Shown one piece after another: positions 36 to 46,984 of a DNA stretch of 54,103 bases (positions are counted from its first letter, which is position 1; every line of letters begins with the position of its first letter). Under the pieces are notes generated by a model that worked only from the letters and a program-made list of their open reading frames with translations, was not told where the DNA came from and did no database searches. The translations under genes were made by a program, and so were the position numbers. Origin of the DNA: a bacterium (GTDB taxonomy: Bacteria; UBA6262; WVXT01); contig JBHIBS010000008.1 of NCBI GenBank assembly GCA_046759165.1, positions 1 to 54,103 on the forward strand. The letters are read 5' to 3'.

Positions 36-140
36 CGTTATCGGCAACTGCGCAGACTGAACGAGAACCACCACTAAATCATTGGTCCCCGAGCTTTGCG
101 CTCCACCCTCTCGGAATAGATTGCCCATTTGGGATATTCG
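36..140 (-). promoter_or_regulatory. c-di-GMP-I (GEMM-I) riboswitch aptamer
   Basis: Minus strand reads AUGGGCAAUCUAUUCC-GAGA-GGGUGGAGCGCAAAGCU...CAGUUGCCGAUA: GGGCAA, GNRA-capped P2, GCGCAAAGC and GUUGCCG are GEMM-I signatures; regulated gene lies off the left edge. Confidence 0.8.
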
Positions 141-237: not shown

Positions 238-2634
238 CTAGTCGGAAAGCTCTTCCAAGATGACCTGTGTATCAGTTTCCCTGGCGAGTTCTTCGCAAAC
301 TTCCTTGAATTCTGGATACTCTTCTACGGAAACTGAAGTCTTCTTATCTATCAATCTTTCTTCGAAACTGATTAATCCCTTAGTAAAGGTATACTTATAG
401 CTATAGCTAAACCATGGAGTATCCTTAACAATACGTGCAGGCAGAAACTTCACAGTTAGGTGGCCTGGAAGTTCCACTCTAATTTTTGTCTCGTTTTCAT
501 AAAGTGCTCGAAAATCTAATGGAAAGTTCCGCTTCTTTCTGGATACTAAAGATGCTGACAGGCTTCCAAATTTTGGAAGGAGTCTATTCCTTCCGGCTCT
601 GGTTACAAATTTGGGCCCTTTAAACTCCATTCTGATCTCGACTGGCTGGTTTAAGTCATCCACGTTGCTTATTCTATAATTGACAAGTTCTCCTCCTGGC
701 GTAATTGTATTTATTTTCTCCTTAAGTTCTTCCTGAACAAGCACAGGCTTAGTATACTTAAGCCAGACTCTCTGACCCTGGTCGTACGTCCCGAAAGTAT
801 TAATTTCTCGAGTCCCAGAGATAGTTTCGTCGTCATAAATTCTAATTTCCATTGTCTTAGAAACTTTATTATGCTGTGAAGGGAAAAGGGGGATCTTCTC
901 AATTCTTCCACCCCTTTCATAAAACACCAAAACCTTTCTATCCTGGTCGGAAGTAGGAAGATCTCCAAAAGACGCTGTTTCCGCTGTGGGATCCAGAAAG
1001 ACCATCTTTCTATCAACTTCTGCCACCACTATAGCATGATTAAAAGTCAATATCGGAAATTCTTCATCTAAAACCCAGCAGCCTCTGGTACCAATTAGCA
1101 CAGGATGGGCTGAAATTCCGCAATATTTTAACATTGCAATTAGAAGCATAGCCTGATCTTTGCAATCACCATACTTGTTTTTGAAAATTTCAATGGCAGA
1201 GTGGGGCTCAAATCCTGCCTGACCATACTCTACAGCCACATATCTAACCTTGGAGGCCACCCAGTGATAGATTGCCCTGGCTTTCTCTTCCTGTGTTTTC
1301 TTGGCCTTAGTCAGTTCTCTCACTTTTCTTTTTGTTTCCTTATCAACATTCACCTTGTCCTTTGTCAAATTCCACCACCAGTCATAGATATCCTCCCACC
1401 TCTTAAATGAAGAGAGAGAAAGCCTGGGCACAATTTCTTGCCAGGGAGGCATCGAGGGTTCCGCAATTATTTCCGGCGCATTCTTAAATTCCCAAATGTA
1501 AATTCTCTTATCGCCCGCTTCATTAATTTCTGGAGAGAAATCCACCTTGTAATTTGTATATTCTGGATTATAAGATTTAAAATTAAATTCGTAATCTGCT
1601 GGAACTACTACAGTGAGTTTCTGATCAAGGTAAGGTTCGTAACCCTGAATGCCATAGTGGTGGGAGAAATCTCTTTTATTAATTAATCTATTGATGTACC
1701 ATTTTGCTTTGTATTCAATAATCGAGCCTTCAGCAACTTCTGGCATTGAGATAATTTTCACTCGAGCATTACTGTAGAGAGGATAATTCAGATATCTGGA
1801 AACATCCCGAATATGTTTATCACCAACTGGGACAATTGTGCCATCGGGCCTTATCGTCCGGGCATATTCGAGCTCAACTTTCTCATATGTCGAATCGTAA
1901 TTCAACTCCACTTCTCCGTAGCGCTTTCCGCGGTCATTCAATATCTTCACTATGAAGTGGGCCTCATCCGTAGCAGTATAGTCAGGCAAAATCTCAAATT
2001 TTTTATCGTTTAAAAGGATTATTGCTCCTGCATTTGGATACTCTTCCTGCCCGGGAGCATTCTCAATCAAGTCTCGTATGAATTTGTTTTCTATTTCATC
2101 TACCCTAAACACCCCAATCTGAGCATTAATTGCTGTAATACGCTCAGAAGCAAGAAGTTTGTAGTCTCCTCCAGTAATCTTTCTATAAGCCTTAATTGCC
2201 TGATCAAAGAGATTCTGCTTTTCGCAAGTCCGTCCGTAAAAATATAGAAACTCGTCGTCCTTAGATTCTTCATATTTGTCGAAAATAGCCAGAGCTTCAG
2301 TATAGTGTGCCTGCATAAAATGTGAGAGGGCAAGGAGTTTCCCGATAGCAAAATTATCTTTCTCCTTTTGGTAAACCTGGGATAACTCCTTAATCGCTTC
2401 TGGATATTTACCGTGTTGGTAATAAAACCTGCCCAGTAGAAAACGTACCTCGCTAACATTGGCCTTAGGGTCCTGTAATGCCAAATTGTACTCATTCACA
2501 GCTTCATGGAAAAAACGCTCACTTTTCTCGGCGTACTCGTTTGCTAACTCCAGATGGCTCCTGCCAAGAACTGGCGAAGCTGCAGAGCAAATAAATAAAA
2601 AAAACAGAAAAACAGACAAAGTCTTCCTTCTCAA
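238..2634 (-). CDS. Exported TPR + DUF3857/transglutaminase-like domain protein
   Basis: Signal peptide, N-terminal TPR-like helices, GDCKD and FNH transglutaminase-like motifs, 798 aa. Confidence 0.8.
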   Translation of the reverse strand: MRRKTLSVFLFFLFICSAASPVLGRSHLELANEYAEKSERFFHEAVNEYNLALQDPKANVSEVRFLLGRFYYQHGKYPEAIKELSQVYQKEKDNFAIGKLLALSHFMQAHYTEALAIFDKYEESKDDEFLYFYGRTCEKQNLFDQAIKAYRKITGGDYKLLASERITAINAQIGVFRVDEIENKFIRDLIENAPGQEEYPNAGAIILLNDKKFEILPDYTATDEAHFIVKILNDRGKRYGEVELNYDSTYEKVELEYARTIRPDGTIVPVGDKHIRDVSRYLNYPLYSNARVKIISMPEVAEGSIIEYKAKWYINRLINKRDFSHHYGIQGYEPYLDQKLTVVVPADYEFNFKSYNPEYTNYKVDFSPEINEAGDKRIYIWEFKNAPEIIAEPSMPPWQEIVPRLSLSSFKRWEDIYDWWWNLTKDKVNVDKETKRKVRELTKAKKTQEEKARAIYHWVASKVRYVAVEYGQAGFEPHSAIEIFKNKYGDCKDQAMLLIAMLKYCGISAHPVLIGTRGCWVLDEEFPILTFNHAIVVAEVDRKMVFLDPTAETASFGDLPTSDQDRKVLVFYERGGRIEKIPLFPSQHNKVSKTMEIRIYDDETISGTREINTFGTYDQGQRVWLKYTKPVLVQEELKEKINTITPGGELVNYRISNVDDLNQPVEIRMEFKGPKFVTRAGRNRLLPKFGSLSASLVSRKKRNFPLDFRALYENETKIRVELPGHLTVKFLPARIVKDTPWFSYSYKYTFTKGLISFEERLIDKKTSVSVEEYPEFKEVCEELARETDTQVILEELSD

Positions 2635-23627: not shown

Positions 23628-23715
23628 GTCTTCGGCAACCTGACTACCCCGATAACTCGGGACTCTAAGGCTTTGCGTCCCCCTATATTTTAGGGAGTTG
23701 CTTTTATCGAACGAC
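23628..23715 (-). promoter_or_regulatory. GEMM-I riboswitch aptamer with A at the G20-equivalent position
   Basis: UUCGAUAAAAGCAACUCCCUA-AAAUA-UAGGGGGACGCAAAGCC...CAGGUUGCCGAAGAC; promoter TTGTCA-N17-TAATAT at 23763-23735. Confidence 0.8.
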
Positions 23716-43505: not shown

Positions 43506-44701
43506 TCCTTATAATTCCTTACCCCTGCACAAATGGATTCCACCAATTTCTTCTGAAATTTGCTACTCCTCAATTTTCGTGCCTCTGATCGATTTGAAAT
43601 AAATCCTACTTCCACAAGAATAGCCGGCATCTTAGCTCCTCTCAAAACTCTGAAACCGGCCTGTTTAACTCCTCTGTTATCCACAATTCTTAAGTGACTG
43701 TCGACTTCAGAAGAGACAAGCCCAGAGAGTTCACATGACTCATTCATAAATTCATTCATGGCCAATGACCACAGAATTGAAGATAATTCATTCCCCTTTT
43801 CTTTTTTCTCCTCCAGAGCCATTACTGCGTTCTCCATATTGGCTACTGCTTGTGCCTCCTCATCAGATGCCTCCTCAGACAGAAAATAGACTTCAAAACC
43901 TTGAGTACGTGACTTCAGGGAAGCATTGCAGTGAACGCTAATAAACAGGTCTGCCTTCTCGCGGTTAGCTATGGCGGTTCTCTCGGCAAGGGGCAGAAAG
44001 ATATCGTGATACCTGGTTAAGACAACTCTCGTCTTTAGATTCCTATGCAACTCCTTAGCCAGCTTACGGGCGATCTTCAACACCACGTCCTTCTCCTTGG
44101 TGCCCCAAGGACCGATTGCCCCGGGGTCTTTGCCACCATGTCCAGGGTCAATCACAATAGTCTTTATTCTTGGCCTTTTCGCTTCTGCCAGAGGAGGGAC
44201 AGGAACAGTTATTTCAGGTTCTGGAGGAGAGACCTTTCCCTCTTCTTTTTTTATAGGAGCGGCAGTTAGCTTCTCGACAGTCGACAAAGTTTTGCTCGGA
44301 TAGTCCCAAAACACCTGTCCACCAAGCACCTGACCAAATGCCTTAGTAATCACAACTTCCAGGGGAATCCATACTCTTCCTTCAATAATTTTGGTTTCCT
44401 TTTTCATCTTGCGTCTAATATTGTCGATAATTACCTCACGGCTATCAATAAAAAATTCCACCTTCCCCCTATTCAATTCCAGACTTGCTTTATTCTTAAC
44501 CGGGTCAAAATCAACTTTTCCATCAAATATCTCAGCCACATCATTGATTCTCAGATACCCCATTCCCGCAATCAAAAGTAAATCGATATCGCTATAAGTC
44601 CTCTCGGCAATAAGCACCTTAATCTTGACCAGCCGAATTTGGGCTGAGGCAAGAGAGAAACAGAAAACCAATATTAGCCCTGATAGAAATAATTTTTTCA
44701 A
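43487..44701 (-). CDS. N-acetylmuramoyl-L-alanine amidase (Amidase_3)
   Basis: IDPGHGGKDPGA, EKD, FISVHCNA, LVEVGFISN; signal peptide. Confidence 0.92.
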   Translation of the reverse strand: MKKLFLSGLILVFCFSLASAQIRLVKIKVLIAERTYSDIDLLLIAGMGYLRINDVAEIFDGKVDFDPVKNKASLELNRGKVEFFIDSREVIIDNIRRKMKKETKIIEGRVWIPLEVVITKAFGQVLGGQVFWDYPSKTLSTVEKLTAAPIKKEEGKVSPPEPEITVPVPPLAEAKRPRIKTIVIDPGHGGKDPGAIGPWGTKEKDVVLKIARKLAKELHRNLKTRVVLTRYHDIFLPLAERTAIANREKADLFISVHCNASLKSRTQGFEVYFLSEEASDEEAQAVANMENAVMALEEKKEKGNELSSILWSLAMNEFMNESCELSGLVSSEVDSHLRIVDNRGVKQAGFRVLRGAKMPAILVEVGFISNRSEARKLRSSKFQKKLVESICAGVRNYKEWVEKW

Positions 44702-44711
44702 CTACGCACCA

Positions 44712-45000
44712 CTACTTTTCCCTATAATCACACGCCACATCGCCAACCAATCCTTTACCCGCGAGGAGAATTACGGGAATATCTTTAATTTCCTCATTCT
44801 CTTTAATCATCTTCCAGGGAGTAAACCCATCAAGTTTGGCTATCATTACCTCCATAATAATGTGCTTGGGCTTCTCTTTGCCTGCCTTGCTAATGCCTTC
44901 CAATCCCGAAACGACCGTCAATACCTTGTGATTGCGAGCTTGCACTATTGCTGCCGTTGTATCCAGAGCATCAGGGTCATCGTCGATTATAAGTATTTTA
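44712..45000 (-). pseudogene. Degenerate response-regulator receiver domain
   Basis: KILIIDDD...IIMEV (phosphoacceptor Asp replaced by Glu)...IPVILLAG; truncated, no credible start. Confidence 0.55.
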
Positions 45001-45047
45001 GATTTCCTGCTTGTATCTCTTCCTATGGTTTGGTGGAGGCGGCGGGA

Positions 45048-45676
45048 CATATACCCCACTTATTTCTAAGTGGTATGGACTATCTCTTCATCCCCAACAG
45101 GGAGCCTGACGTGTTATAAGAGGCACAAATTTATCGCTGGTTCAATTTCCTTATTTGAGCAACAAGTTCCAATTTTCTTCTTAGCATCTCAGGAGTATAC
45201 TTTCCATTTCTCGGAGTATACACCTTATATTTCCTTGTGATTAACCAAGATTGTTGCTTCTTGACAATAAGGTAATCTTTAATTTCATTGAGAAAGCAAA
45301 TTGCTTTATTATCCCTAATTGACCACGTATAAGACTGAGCATGATGGGCTTTATTCTTACTTTTCGTGGTAATCTTCCCTGCACCAACAACGTTTTTGAC
45401 CCAATCTAAAAGCTGTAAATTATTGTTGGCAATGGATACCTCTGGGGATGGAGTTTCATTCCTATGTTTCCGACTAAGAGTTACGCTACCTTCTCCATCA
45501 ACCAGCCCGGCTATGTATGCTTTCTCAATTTCGCCCAACGATATCACCTCCTATCATTGCAGTCTCTGCAGGGCTTTCGCCCCTCAGGGTTACCCTTTCC
45601 TATATTATCAGGATTAGGGCTTCCCTGATGTAAGCCAGGTTTTGCATCCCGAATTGCTTCGGGAGTCGACCTTTTG
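45048..45676 (-). mobile_element. Group I intron in the tmRNA T-loop
   Basis: P1 with U.G at the splice site, P2 GCAA hairpin, P3 CCUGGC/GUCAGG, P4 CAGGG/CCCUG, GCAGAGACU, GAAGAGAUAGUC, P9 GAAA hairpin, terminal G. Confidence 0.92.
45131..45538 (-). CDS. Single-motif LAGLIDADG homing endonuclease (intron-encoded)
   Basis: YIAGLVDGEGS motif and YL.VKK; AGGAGG RBS favours TTG at 45538 (track start 45547). Confidence 0.9.
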   Translation of the reverse strand: MGEIEKAYIAGLVDGEGSVTLSRKHRNETPSPEVSIANNNLQLLDWVKNVVGAGKITTKSKNKAHHAQSYTWSIRDNKAICFLNEIKDYLIVKKQQSWLITRKYKVYTPRNGKYTPEMLRRKLELVAQIRKLNQR

Positions 45677-46009
45677 ATCGAACCCGCGTCCAGGAATATT
45701 TCAGCAAGACATCTACAGGTTTAGTCTCTGTTTGGAATCTCCTCCGCCTTATTACCCATAGACAGGATTCGAGGCGGAGCAGCCTTTAAATATCATCCTG
45801 ACTCCCAAGGCAAAAGTCAAGACTATCCCATCTCTCTGACACTCATCCCCATCCAATGGGCAAAATGGGGTGAGCGTGTCCGCTTACGCGGCTAATGCTA
45901 ACTCAGCGTCAGCACTTATTTTCTGTTGTCGATTGATTAACGAGCCTTCGACAAACCTCGACCTGCAGTCTCTGCCTCTTCTATCCCTGTCGAAACCTGA
46001 TCGCCCCCT

Positions 46010-46462
46010 TTATTTGTATCTGTCTTTCATCAACCTCCTTATTTCTCTCTCGGCTTCGCGCCTCTTTAACACTTCTCTCTTGTCGTATGTCTTTTTCCCC
46101 CTGGCAAGGCCAAGAGAAACCTTTGCATTTCCATCTTTAAAATACATCTCTAAAGGGACCAAAGTTAAGCCCCTCTGTTGAACTTTGCCTATCAATCTTT
46201 TTATCTCATGCCTATGTAAAAGTAACTTCCTTTTTCGCTCCGGGTCGTAATCCTTTGTCGAGGACTTTTCATATGGGCTTATATGTACATTATAAAGGAA
46301 TGCCTCTTCTCCTTCTATGCAACCAAACCCATCCTTCAAAGCCACTCTTCCCTCTCGTAAAGACTTCACTTCCGAACCGACCAAAACAATTCCCGACTCA
46401 TAGGTCTCTAAAATTTCATAATCATGTAAAGCCCTTCTGTTTTTACTTATGATTTTTTTCAT
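46010..46462 (-). CDS. smpB: SsrA-binding protein SmpB
   Basis: NRRA..DY, GSEVKSLR, RKLLLH, ARGKK.YDKR. Confidence 0.97.
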   Translation of the reverse strand: MKKIISKNRRALHDYEILETYESGIVLVGSEVKSLREGRVALKDGFGCIEGEEAFLYNVHISPYEKSSTKDYDPERKRKLLLHRHEIKRLIGKVQQRGLTLVPLEMYFKDGNAKVSLGLARGKKTYDKREVLKRREAEREIRRLMKDRYK

Positions 46463-46468
46463 TTTGAA

Positions 46469-46497
46469 ATTATAGCAAAATAAATTCCCTTTTGCAA
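46469..46497 (-). promoter_or_regulatory. sigma70-type promoter giving a leaderless smpB(-ssrA) transcript
   Basis: TTGCAA-N17-TATAAT, -10 ends 6 nt before the ATG; no SD. Confidence 0.6.
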
Positions 46498-46502
46498 ATA
46501 AA

Positions 46503-46608
46503 AAGCCCGAATTTAGTTCATAGTCGATAGTTCATAATTTGTGGAAAAAGAAATTTTTACAAAAAGCCTATGAACCAGGAACTAATAACTACGAACCAAT
46601 TTGGGCTT
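46503..46608. repeat. Large inverted repeat built from 7-bp units
   Basis: AAGCCCGAATT/AATTTGGGCTT ends; TAGTTCA-like units on left, TATGAAC-like units on right. Confidence 0.55.
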
Positions 46609-46649
46609 GACTTTTTCTCCAGGCTAGACTAAAATTATTACAAAGTTAT

Positions 46650-46733
46650 GCCGAAGTGGTGAAATTGGCAAACACGCACGGTCCAGGGCCGTGTGGGCGA
46701 GAGCCCTTGGGGGTTCAAATCCCCCCTTCGGCA
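46650..46733 (+). tRNA. tRNA-Leu(CAG) with atypical C33
   Basis: GCCGAAG...CACGG-TCCAGGG-CCGTG, variable arm, GGTTCAAATCC, CTTCGGCA; promoter TTGACT-N17-TAAAAT at 46607-46635. Confidence 0.9.
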
Positions 46734-46984
46734 AGTAAATTTAAGGAAGCCCTTGATTTTCTTATCTTTTCTTGTAATCCACTAGTTTTGGCCAAACCAA
46801 CTTTCGGCAATAACAGGCTGTCGTCGACTTGCCCAAAAGCATAAAAGCCCACTATTCCTTCCTCTTTGCCAGGCAGAATCGTTATACCCGTTATGAACTG
46901 CCTCACGTAAACTTTCTTCTCCTGTAGAGCGCCTTTCGCTAACACTTCATCGGCATTCCTCAGATACTCCAAAATCCCCAGCAT
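46715..46984 (-). pseudogene. C-terminal fragment of a probable large serine recombinase reading into the tRNA 3' end
   Basis: KK.YVRQFI..I.I pattern; ORF ends LAEGGI* inside the tRNA. Confidence 0.5.

Follow-up and report, generated by a model that had tools for sequence, protein, structure and literature searches.

A bacterial ssrA (tmRNA) gene interrupted within the T-loop by a group I intron with a LAGLIDADG endonuclease gene

The transfer-messenger RNA (tmRNA) gene ssrA is found next to smpB on the minus strand of a 54,103-nucleotide (nt) stretch of bacterial DNA, positions 1 to 54,103 of contig JBHIBS010000008.1 (assembly GCA_046759165.1, lineage UBA6262; WVXT01), and this whole stretch is referred to below as the window. 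We are confident, short of certainty, that this ssrA, the single one of the organism and transcribed with smpB, is split between nucleotides 6 and 7 of its T-loop by a self-splicing intron of group I carrying a homing LAGLIDADG gene. The intron and the endonuclease are well formed and probably functional, and the element is possibly still mobile. The selfish-DNA arrangement is a textbook one and the host gene is unusual and important, as all trans-translation in the cell should depend on a working ribozyme.

The gene anatomy can be read directly from the minus strand, to which all window coordinates refer. The smpB gene (46010..46462), present in the list of open reading frames (ORFs) and matched by Pfam SmpB with 201 bits (E 9.3e-60), encodes the protein partner of tmRNA, and its stop codon lies 1 nt before the first ssrA base. 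Exon 1 of ssrA (332 nt, 45677..46008) contains the 5' acceptor half, the pseudoknots, the template for the tag and the T-arm's 5' half, and its 3' end reads GCGGGUUCGAU; the tag reading frame (45884..45913, from GCU to UAA, ARAGORN positions 96-125 of the spliced form) encodes ADAELALAA and a stop. The group I intron (629 nt, 45048..45676) follows a U at position -1 (45677) and finishes with a terminal G (45048), and exon 2 (UCCCGCCGCCUCCACCA, 17 nt, 45031..45047) supplies the last T-loop base, the 3' strands of the T-stem and of the acceptor stem, and ACCA, matching the downstream half of the junction in an intron-less relative (G006). Insertion has thus taken place after T-loop nucleotide 6, and joining restores the loop UUCGAU|U, with 5/5 T-stem pairs formed across the intron, a 7-bp acceptor stem with a G3.U pair (read from the sequence) and a 3' CCA. 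The original prediction, made from the letters of this DNA, had given the end of exon 1, the 629-nt insert and the 17-nt exon 2, all correctly, and its central claim of a tmRNA split in the T-loop by a group I intron is borne out by ARAGORN on the joined exons, by the full set of helices and by the terminal G.

The Rfam tmRNA model RF00023 matches the window with 153.4 bits (E 1.6e-60), above its cut-off of 47, over 46008..45661, and in this alignment the 3' T-arm, acceptor and CCA part is forced onto unrelated intron bases. ARAGORN calls no tmRNA in the genomic sequence and, after deletion of 45676..45048 by coordinates, reports a tmRNA of 349 nt in which both tRNA-like domains are present and the tag is ADAELALAA. 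It had been expected that standard annotation would miss the gene, which is true for ARAGORN but not for Rfam, since the latter finds exon 1 and truncates the gene at a wrong 3' end; herein lies the value of the locus for annotation. An intact ssrA elsewhere had been named as the case that would speak against a split functional gene, and no second tmRNA-level match was found in the rest of the assembly (92% complete, 165 contigs), which holds one ssrA, one copy of the homing endonuclease gene (HEG) and one group I signal. Because the ssrA is single and its T-arm is split, tmRNA function is dependent on splicing, in agreement with the proposal that ribosome rescue is splicing-dependent here.

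It is most improbable that the locus is a dead ssrA copy or an assembly artefact, in which the insert would be junk or a chimeric join and ribosome rescue would proceed by other means. A second ssrA is formally possible in a metagenome-assembled genome (MAG) of 165 contigs and 92% completeness, and the silence of ARAGORN on the genomic sequence would be explained as well; against this, the same architecture recurs in two other genomes and in a metagenome contig (L085), 0.87-0.94 of the words sampled from the window recur in three DNA runs other than the source, each from a different study (another two runs reach 1.00 and may derive from the source sample itself), and the tag frame, the pseudoknots, smpB and every ribozyme helix are intact.

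All helices of the ribozyme are fully base-paired in the window: P1, P2, P3, P4, P5, P5a, P6, P7, P7.1, P7.1a, P8 and P9. P1 (45666..45681) pairs UCGAUC (45681-45676) with GGUCGA (45671-45666) in 6/6 positions and includes the splice-site U.G pair, U45677.G45670, which is kept in 6/6 aligned introns. It is followed by P2, a 7-bp hairpin with a GCAA loop (45647..45664), and by a block (45570..45639) in which the 5' strand of P3 (45639-45634), P4 (45628-45623 x 45589-45584), P5, P5a and P6 (45583-45570, closed by a GAAA loop) are all paired. The 5' strand of P7, G[A]GACUG with the bulged A in brackets (45560..45566), pairs with UAGUCC at 45082-45077. P7 is likely the guanosine-binding helix, and within it we take the G-binding pair to be the one assigned by analogy with the Tetrahymena intron. 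The 3' part of the core (45056..45110) comprises P3' (45110-45105), P8 (45103-45091), P7' (45082-45077) and P9 (45073-45056, with a GAAA loop), identified by pairing and by a partial match of the Rfam group I model RF00028 (45291..45056, 28.3 bits).

The helices were compared in an alignment (A1) of six HEG-less homologous introns, three from congeners and three from Bacillales (Fictibacillus, Bacillus). Unaided, RNAalifold folds A1 into the T-stem across the intron, P1, P2, P3, P4, P5, P5a, P6 and P8, with double changes in 26/59 pairs. The full structure, including the P3/P7 pseudoknot, has 86.1% of its cells paired, versus 31-48% for slid controls, and a covariation score of 0.401, versus 0.05-0.16 for controls, a value reached by 0/500 shuffles. 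Changes on both sides affect 6/7 pairs of P2, and compensatory changes accompany the pairing of P3 (100%), P4/P5 (95%) and P6 (100%); P7.1a covaries in 6/8 pairs, and P7 is 100% paired and invariant. For P5a and P8, RNAalifold's own pairs fit better than the hand-drawn columns, and P9, as judged by eye, needs a shift of one base to form in both lineages. As a separate observation, the Rfam model IMES-2 (RF02035) gives sub-threshold matches (17-31 bits, cut-off 54.7) on the P3-P7 part of the introns, at 45521-45659 (-) of the window, 1352-1498 of locus L022 and 1342-1489 of locus L025; IMES-2 and group I cores may have an element of their fold in common.

The HEG (45131..45538, motif IAGLVDGEG) forms the loop of the stacked P7.1 and P7.1a helices, between P7 and P3', and the minimum free energy fold of 45558..45112 closes with these two helices (z = -2.72). 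An intact LAGLIDADG ORF had been predicted at this place, and the assignment is upheld by Pfam, where both LAGLIDADG_3 (PF14528, 30 bits, cut-off 22.5) and LAGLIDADG_1 (PF00961, 29 bits, cut-off 23.1) score above their cut-offs. The 5' strand of P7.1 (AUAGGAGG, 45547..45554), which contains the Shine-Dalgarno sequence AGGAGG of the HEG, forms 8/8 pairs with CCUCUUAU at 45123-45116, and the 5' strand of P7.1a (AUCGUUGG, 45535..45542), which contains the UUG start codon, forms 8/8 pairs with CCAGCGAU at 45140-45133, a strand that holds the last codons and adjoins the stop codon. Since the ribosome-binding site and the start codon are base-paired in the folded intron, we infer that HEG translation and ribozyme folding compete. 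Competition between translation and intron folding is a known theme in the endonucleases of phage introns. The P7.1-type extension sits between P7 and P3', and the first tmRNA T-loop intron, reportedly that of Clostridium botulinum described by Williams in 2002, is labelled IA3, a subgroup with an extension of the P7.1/P7.2 type between the same two elements.

The HEG reading frame spans 408 nt and encodes 135 amino acids (aa) from the UUG at 45538, or 138 aa if translation starts from the GUG at 45547. Of 138 database candidates for relatives of its protein, 132 pass at E <= 0.001, most of them without a name, and residues D14, G15 and E16 are nearly invariant, each at least 90% conserved across 43 homologous sequences. 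Among three full-length copies (window, G004 and G005) the ratio of nonsynonymous to synonymous substitution rates (dN/dS) is 0.11, 0.14 and 0.16 at dS values of up to 0.46, which indicates that the protein has been under purifying selection. The AlphaFold model has a predicted local distance difference test score (pLDDT) of 94 and a predicted template modelling score (pTM) of 0.85, and the best Foldseek matches are I-CreI, I-CvuI, I-MsoI and I-Vdi141I (TM 0.74-0.81, probability 1.00), consistent with matches to I-Vdi141I and I-MsoI in a sequence search of the PDB. Like these homodimeric enzymes of rRNA group I introns, the window's HEG has one motif and lies in a peripheral loop, with a predicted alpha-beta-beta-alpha-beta-beta-alpha core and a predicted dimer formed via the motif helix. 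Unlike them, it resides in ssrA and not in an rRNA gene, and its product is shorter (135 aa), with 15-27% identity to them.

A prediction with two copies of the protein gave a homodimer score of 0.77, versus 0.00 for the best of three controls. The mark of 0.77 was attained by 20/30 of the proteins whose solved structure is a pair of one chain, compared with 1/23 of those solved as a single chain. Between runs, at least 94% of the contacts are the same, with a pLDDT of 88, and the interface is the LAGLIDADG helix (residues 3-16). As solved dimers of the I-CreI type exist, this result may only reflect likeness to them and is not proof; judged from the models, the protein is most likely an I-CreI-like homodimer.

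Three intron states occur at the same position within the window's family. Eight relatives were scanned and a tmRNA match was obtained in six, with G001 and G007 (incomplete) giving tRNA-level scores only. One of the six (G006) is intron-less and reads GGTTCGAT and then TCCCGCCGCCTCCACCA, exactly the predicted ligation product; three (G002, G003 and G008) carry a HEG-less intron of 246-247 nt, and two carry a HEG-bearing intron, of 629 nt in G004 and 628 nt in G005. With ssrA in 6/8 relatives and a same-site intron in five, chance is excluded, and the synteny of smpB, ssrA and a response-regulator gene is kept across all intron states in the family. What sets the short introns apart from the long ones is the absence of 382 nt, and the missing segment is bounded by an 8-nt direct repeat, GAAAUUGA, whose two copies are located in the window at 45525..45532 and 45142..45149. 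As parts of P7.1 and P7.1a, the ribosome-binding site, start codon and stop region are still present in the HEG-less introns. The pattern is read as a loss of the HEG by deletion between the repeats, the reverse event, insertion, being less likely. Exon 1 of the intron-less G006 is almost identical to that of the intron-bearing G003, so that intron gain or precise loss was recent. The contig of G004 is labelled Clostridia, and a Pseudobdellovibrionaceae MAG holds the same intron type with a 3'-truncated ORF; the element thus crosses large taxonomic distances. An empty site, a HEG-less and a HEG-bearing intron at one position in one family constitute a compact natural system for the homing cycle.

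The same observations can be used to argue that the intron splices and that the endonuclease no longer drives mobility, the gene being a vertically inherited passenger in the decay phase, with an ORF that is as yet unbroken or is kept otherwise. The HEG has already been lost, through the 382-nt deletion, in 3/5 intron-bearing relatives, the Pseudobdellovibrionaceae copy is truncated, the protein is short, and the passages we draw on from a catalogue of tmRNA introns count a HEG in only 36/883 intron-form tmRNAs (PMC11915505). Such a passenger is nonetheless unlikely, given dN/dS ratios of 0.11-0.16 at dS up to 0.46, a conserved catalytic motif, and in-intron homologues (57-79% identity) that share this architecture and are found in 10 or more metagenome loci, as well as in MAGs carrying the labels Clostridia, Pseudobdellovibrionaceae and Deltaproteobacteria, a distribution that fits continued horizontal spread. 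A HEG that is still mobile is plausible from comparison of the sequences, being favoured by dN/dS, by the conserved catalytic residues and by the presence/absence polymorphism among congeners.

Ligated exons are seen in RNA from a relative. Small parts of the stretch are present in two RNA libraries among the public runs. In the metatranscriptome X19, a contig with a depth of 3949 joins exon 1 (45677-46000) to 14 nt of exon 2, and contigs of the intron (in the HEG-less form, skipping 45141-45525) and of the smpB end have depths of 5.4 and 5.2, respectively. The exon-junction contig is therefore about 730-fold deeper than the intron, an excess that indicates stable RNA and not carried-over DNA. 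It differs from the window by 22 mismatches and 4 gap letters, and the 18 listed exon variants are all common to G003, G008 and G006; the predicted difference totals are 22 + 4 for G003, equal to those of X19, 24 + 4 for G006 and 25 + 0 for G008, and the variants of the intron contig also fit G003 best. The simplest reading is that a G003-type organism with a HEG-less intron, whose ribozyme core is near-identical to that of the window, makes abundant ligated tmRNA. The RNA runs X20 and X18 hold only exon 1 pieces that end short of the junction, and the DNA run X6 holds the HEG region at 95-99% identity, together with short core matches from other introns.

These transcripts bear on the possibility that the LAGLIDADG protein is mainly a maturase that aids intron folding and not a DNA endonuclease. 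The best sequence match in the PDB, the bI3 LAGLIDADG maturase (2ab5, E 1.3e-07), would be in keeping with such a role. Nevertheless, three relatives keep a HEG-less intron whose core is near-identical, and one HEG-less allele gives abundant ligated exons in X19, where the contigs show the HEG-less intron only, so that a maturase is not required; in addition, the acidic metal-binding residue E16 is kept. A protein that serves mainly as a maturase is accordingly very unlikely.

In the homing-intron reading that we prefer, the precursor would fold into the P1-P9 ribozyme, a guanosine would attack after U45677, held in the U.G pair of P1, and the exons would be ligated after removal of the intron up to its terminal G at 45048. 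Ligation would restore the T-arm as well as the acceptor stem, including its G3.U pair, and the CCA end, in the absence of which the tmRNA would probably be unchargeable or unusable. The HEG homodimer would cut intron-less ssrA DNA in the nearly palindromic T-arm, and repair from an intron-bearing copy would spread the intron together with its gene, that is, homing. For the window's own copy we infer self-splicing, as well as endonuclease activity and its target, the latter because of the insertion site and the near-palindromic T-arm.

Several points weigh against this reading. The covariation is drawn from two lineages only (3 + 3 sequences), P7 is without any compensatory change, and the hand-drawn P5a, P8 and P9 columns are partly misaligned in A1 (40-75% paired). 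RF00028, a model search that had been suggested as a check, scores 28.3 and 19.6 bits on the window, in two pieces and below its cut-off of 50, because the ORF splits the match; HEG-less congeners reach 51.8, 47.8 and 42.8 bits over model positions 1-253, hence one of them lies above the cut-off, and this gathering score of 50 bits is a detection threshold and not a defining property. The protein is short, with 135 aa versus about 150-170 for I-CreI and I-MsoI. The RNA comes from a relative (about 92% exon identity, HEG-less intron) and none of it from the window's organism or the HEG-bearing allele, the assignment to G003 is by mismatch counts in which 4/22 differences are not listed, and an intron-less strain with the same exon could co-occur in X19.

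In the passages of the tmRNA intron catalogue considered here, there are 883 unique intron-form tmRNAs among 97,179 sequences, from 21 phyla (Nawrocki, Petrov & Williams 2025, PMC11915505), with all introns in the T-loop, mostly at "position 7", a U at -1, a terminal G and no intron above 700 bp. LAGLIDADG genes are counted there in 36 (4.1%) of the intron-form tmRNAs, and of 23 HEGs among 844 founding sequences, 19 are in the P7.1 region and 4 after P9. The window corresponds to this description point for point: its site is consistent with "position 7", its U-1 pairs with a G in P1, it has the terminal G, its 629 nt are within the range and its HEG is in the P7.1 region. The original prediction had called T-loop introns of tmRNA rare, a claim that, on these counts, is valid solely for the HEG-bearing minority; an intron-form tmRNA with a HEG in P7.1 is an already catalogued class and not a rarity. 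The window itself is probably a new instance, later than the catalogue's genome collection, because the runs that hold its DNA fully date from 2025. Unlike what those catalogue passages describe, three allelic states in one family, a repeat-bounded HEG deletion, a sequestered ribosome-binding site and free-standing HEG relatives are seen here. The intron also differs from the group I introns of bacterial tRNA anticodon loops, as described in a preprint (bioRxiv 10.1101/2020.01.27.920355), by its location in the T-loop of a tmRNA and by its P7.1-type extensions and HEG.

The free-standing relatives of the endonuclease lie beside ssrA. A tmRNA match is present in 6/6 additional genome loci with a gene for a relative, and in Fictibacillus arsenicus, F. 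halophilus and Bacillus aerolatus the homologue is found just beyond ssrA exon 2 on the opposite strand (43 nt beyond it in F. arsenicus), with a 278-280-nt HEG-less intron in the T-loop. In the Fictibacillus family, 44/44 genomes have ssrA; 16 of these genes score 215-226 bits and are all intron-less, and 28 score 159-174 bits, with introns of 273-290 nt in 14/14 examined. The endonuclease is present in 13/28 low-scoring genomes versus 0/16 intron-less ones and adjoins ssrA in 11/13 loci; since kin are not independent, these counts describe a pattern and are not a test.

A metagenome scan, from which 80 of 486 confirmed loci were kept and the 40 with the longest flanks analysed, gave a tmRNA match in 37/40, and classification by regular expressions placed all but eight loci (L102, L105, L119, L121, L127, L138, L152 and L160). 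The HEG is inside the intron in six clean loci, where, just as in the window, 139-166 nt separate it from the 5' splice site, and in four further loci judged by a conserved 3' core element; L085, with a 629-nt intron, the same architecture and 79% protein identity, is the metagenome contig mentioned above. The gene follows ssrA in tandem in 19 clean loci, 72-124 nt after exon 2, and is convergent in three, and the loci with a downstream HEG have a 252-304-nt intron in 22/22 cases. In a protein tree of 46 sequences, midpoint-rooted only and thus without a readable direction of change, the in-intron genes form one group (99/98), in line with a single origin of the fused state; the tandem genes also form one group (100/99, including one locus of unclear class) and the convergent genes two or three.

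Collaborative homing has been described for phages (PMC3984707, PMC2790892), and the free-standing homologues, 43-124 nt beyond an ssrA with a 252-304-nt HEG-less intron, resemble what the former of these portrays. The window differs in being itself the fused state, with the gene inside the intron, and in that the host is a bacterial chromosomal RNA gene and not a phage protein gene, with cutting at the insertion site being presumed. It is a real possibility, to which we would give slightly less than an even chance, that the window's HEG belongs to a LAGLIDADG lineage dedicated to ssrA, whose members are mostly free-standing 43-124 nt beyond an ssrA with a HEG-less intron, and that tmRNA introns spread mainly by collaborative homing. 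If the free-standing enzymes cut the insertion site, this would explain why only about 4% of the introns bear a HEG despite their presence in 21 phyla, the window would represent the rarer fused end-state, and an enzyme that recognises the nearly universal T-arm/acceptor sequence of tmRNA would explain the spread across phyla. Judging by these relatives, a partner gene immediately outside ssrA may have been overlooked for most tmRNA introns, an arrangement for which no report was found in the literature searched.

An active enzyme should not be able to sit beside an uninterrupted target, and some of the exceptional loci fit this expectation. Two Clostridium MAGs (L034 and L036) have an intron-less ssrA and a convergent homologue whose motif, IIESKGS, has a lysine instead of the acidic residue at the catalytic position; the features of L034 are located at 393-1388 (-) and 1501-1911 (+). 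In L119 the reading frame of the homologue contains two internal stops, and the gene is located 19 nt beyond a weak tmRNA (82 bits) that follows three tRNA genes; this tmRNA looks intron-less, as its match runs to a 3' end found by regular expression, but a stricter exon-2 test did not confirm it, and the homologue is either a pseudogene or from an organism with a reassigned stop codon. A further observation is to be added to those counted above against our reading: in 5/23 loci where the HEG follows ssrA in tandem, an uninterrupted copy of the last 25 nt of the tmRNA (T-loop and exon 2) is found 50-110 nt after the HEG, exact in L099, L116 and L164, with one mismatch in L157 and with five in L136, a finding hard to square with the T-loop site being the only target. 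The copy looks like a displaced original 3' end, and this would suggest that the intron, the exon 2 copy and the endonuclease gene entered as one cassette.

Other arrangements were seen among the relatives. A 331-aa ORF with two LAGLIDADG-like motifs is found next to the lysine-motif homologue in L034 and L036. In L121 and L152 the homologue runs antisense to ssrA and is situated after exon 1 and before the conserved 3' core element, perhaps as an antisense gene within a longer intron; the two proteins share a separate long branch of the tree. In G055, a genome of the Fictibacillus family (L084, G055:C1:399000-417000), the homologue is 16.5 kb away from an intron-bearing ssrA, the intervening stretch starts with a ResIII/DEAD helicase-like ORF, and an exon 2 repeat bounding these 16.5 kb was not found.

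Regarding the surroundings of the window's gene, a consensus scan found a promoter-like site, TTTGCA-18-TATAAT with a TG (extended -10), at 46469..46498 (10/12 matches, a consensus match only), which is a candidate promoter of an smpB-ssrA operon, and no terminator-like hairpin was found within 44600-46800. With a promoter-like site just upstream of smpB and no such hairpin in this interval, smpB, ssrA and perhaps the response-regulator gene may share one transcript. The region had also been described as a common integrase attachment site, with the suggestion that the intron may block islands targeting ssrA. Within 1.2-1.5 kb downstream of ssrA, the Pfam family Phage_integrase was detected in 0/16 intron-less and 0/14 intron-bearing loci of the Fictibacillus family (64 ORF segments); no integrase was found downstream of ssrA in any examined relative, intron-less or intron-bearing, and the window's family keeps the response regulator there.

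The response-regulator gene (Pfam Response_reg, 44712-45059 (-)) is located just downstream of ssrA exon 2. At its start codon the window has ACA, versus ATG in five family relatives and GTG in one, and the only in-frame canonical starts are an ATG at 45050-45048 and a GTG at 45059-45057, both inside the last 12 bases of the intron, from which the frame then reads through exon 2. The ACA could mean that the start codon is non-canonical, that the gene is decaying or that the sequence contains an error. Elsewhere in the window, two cyclic di-GMP (c-di-GMP-I) riboswitch aptamers score above the gathering threshold, at 23631-23712 (-) and 40-135 (-), with 50.5 and 36.7 bits, respectively.

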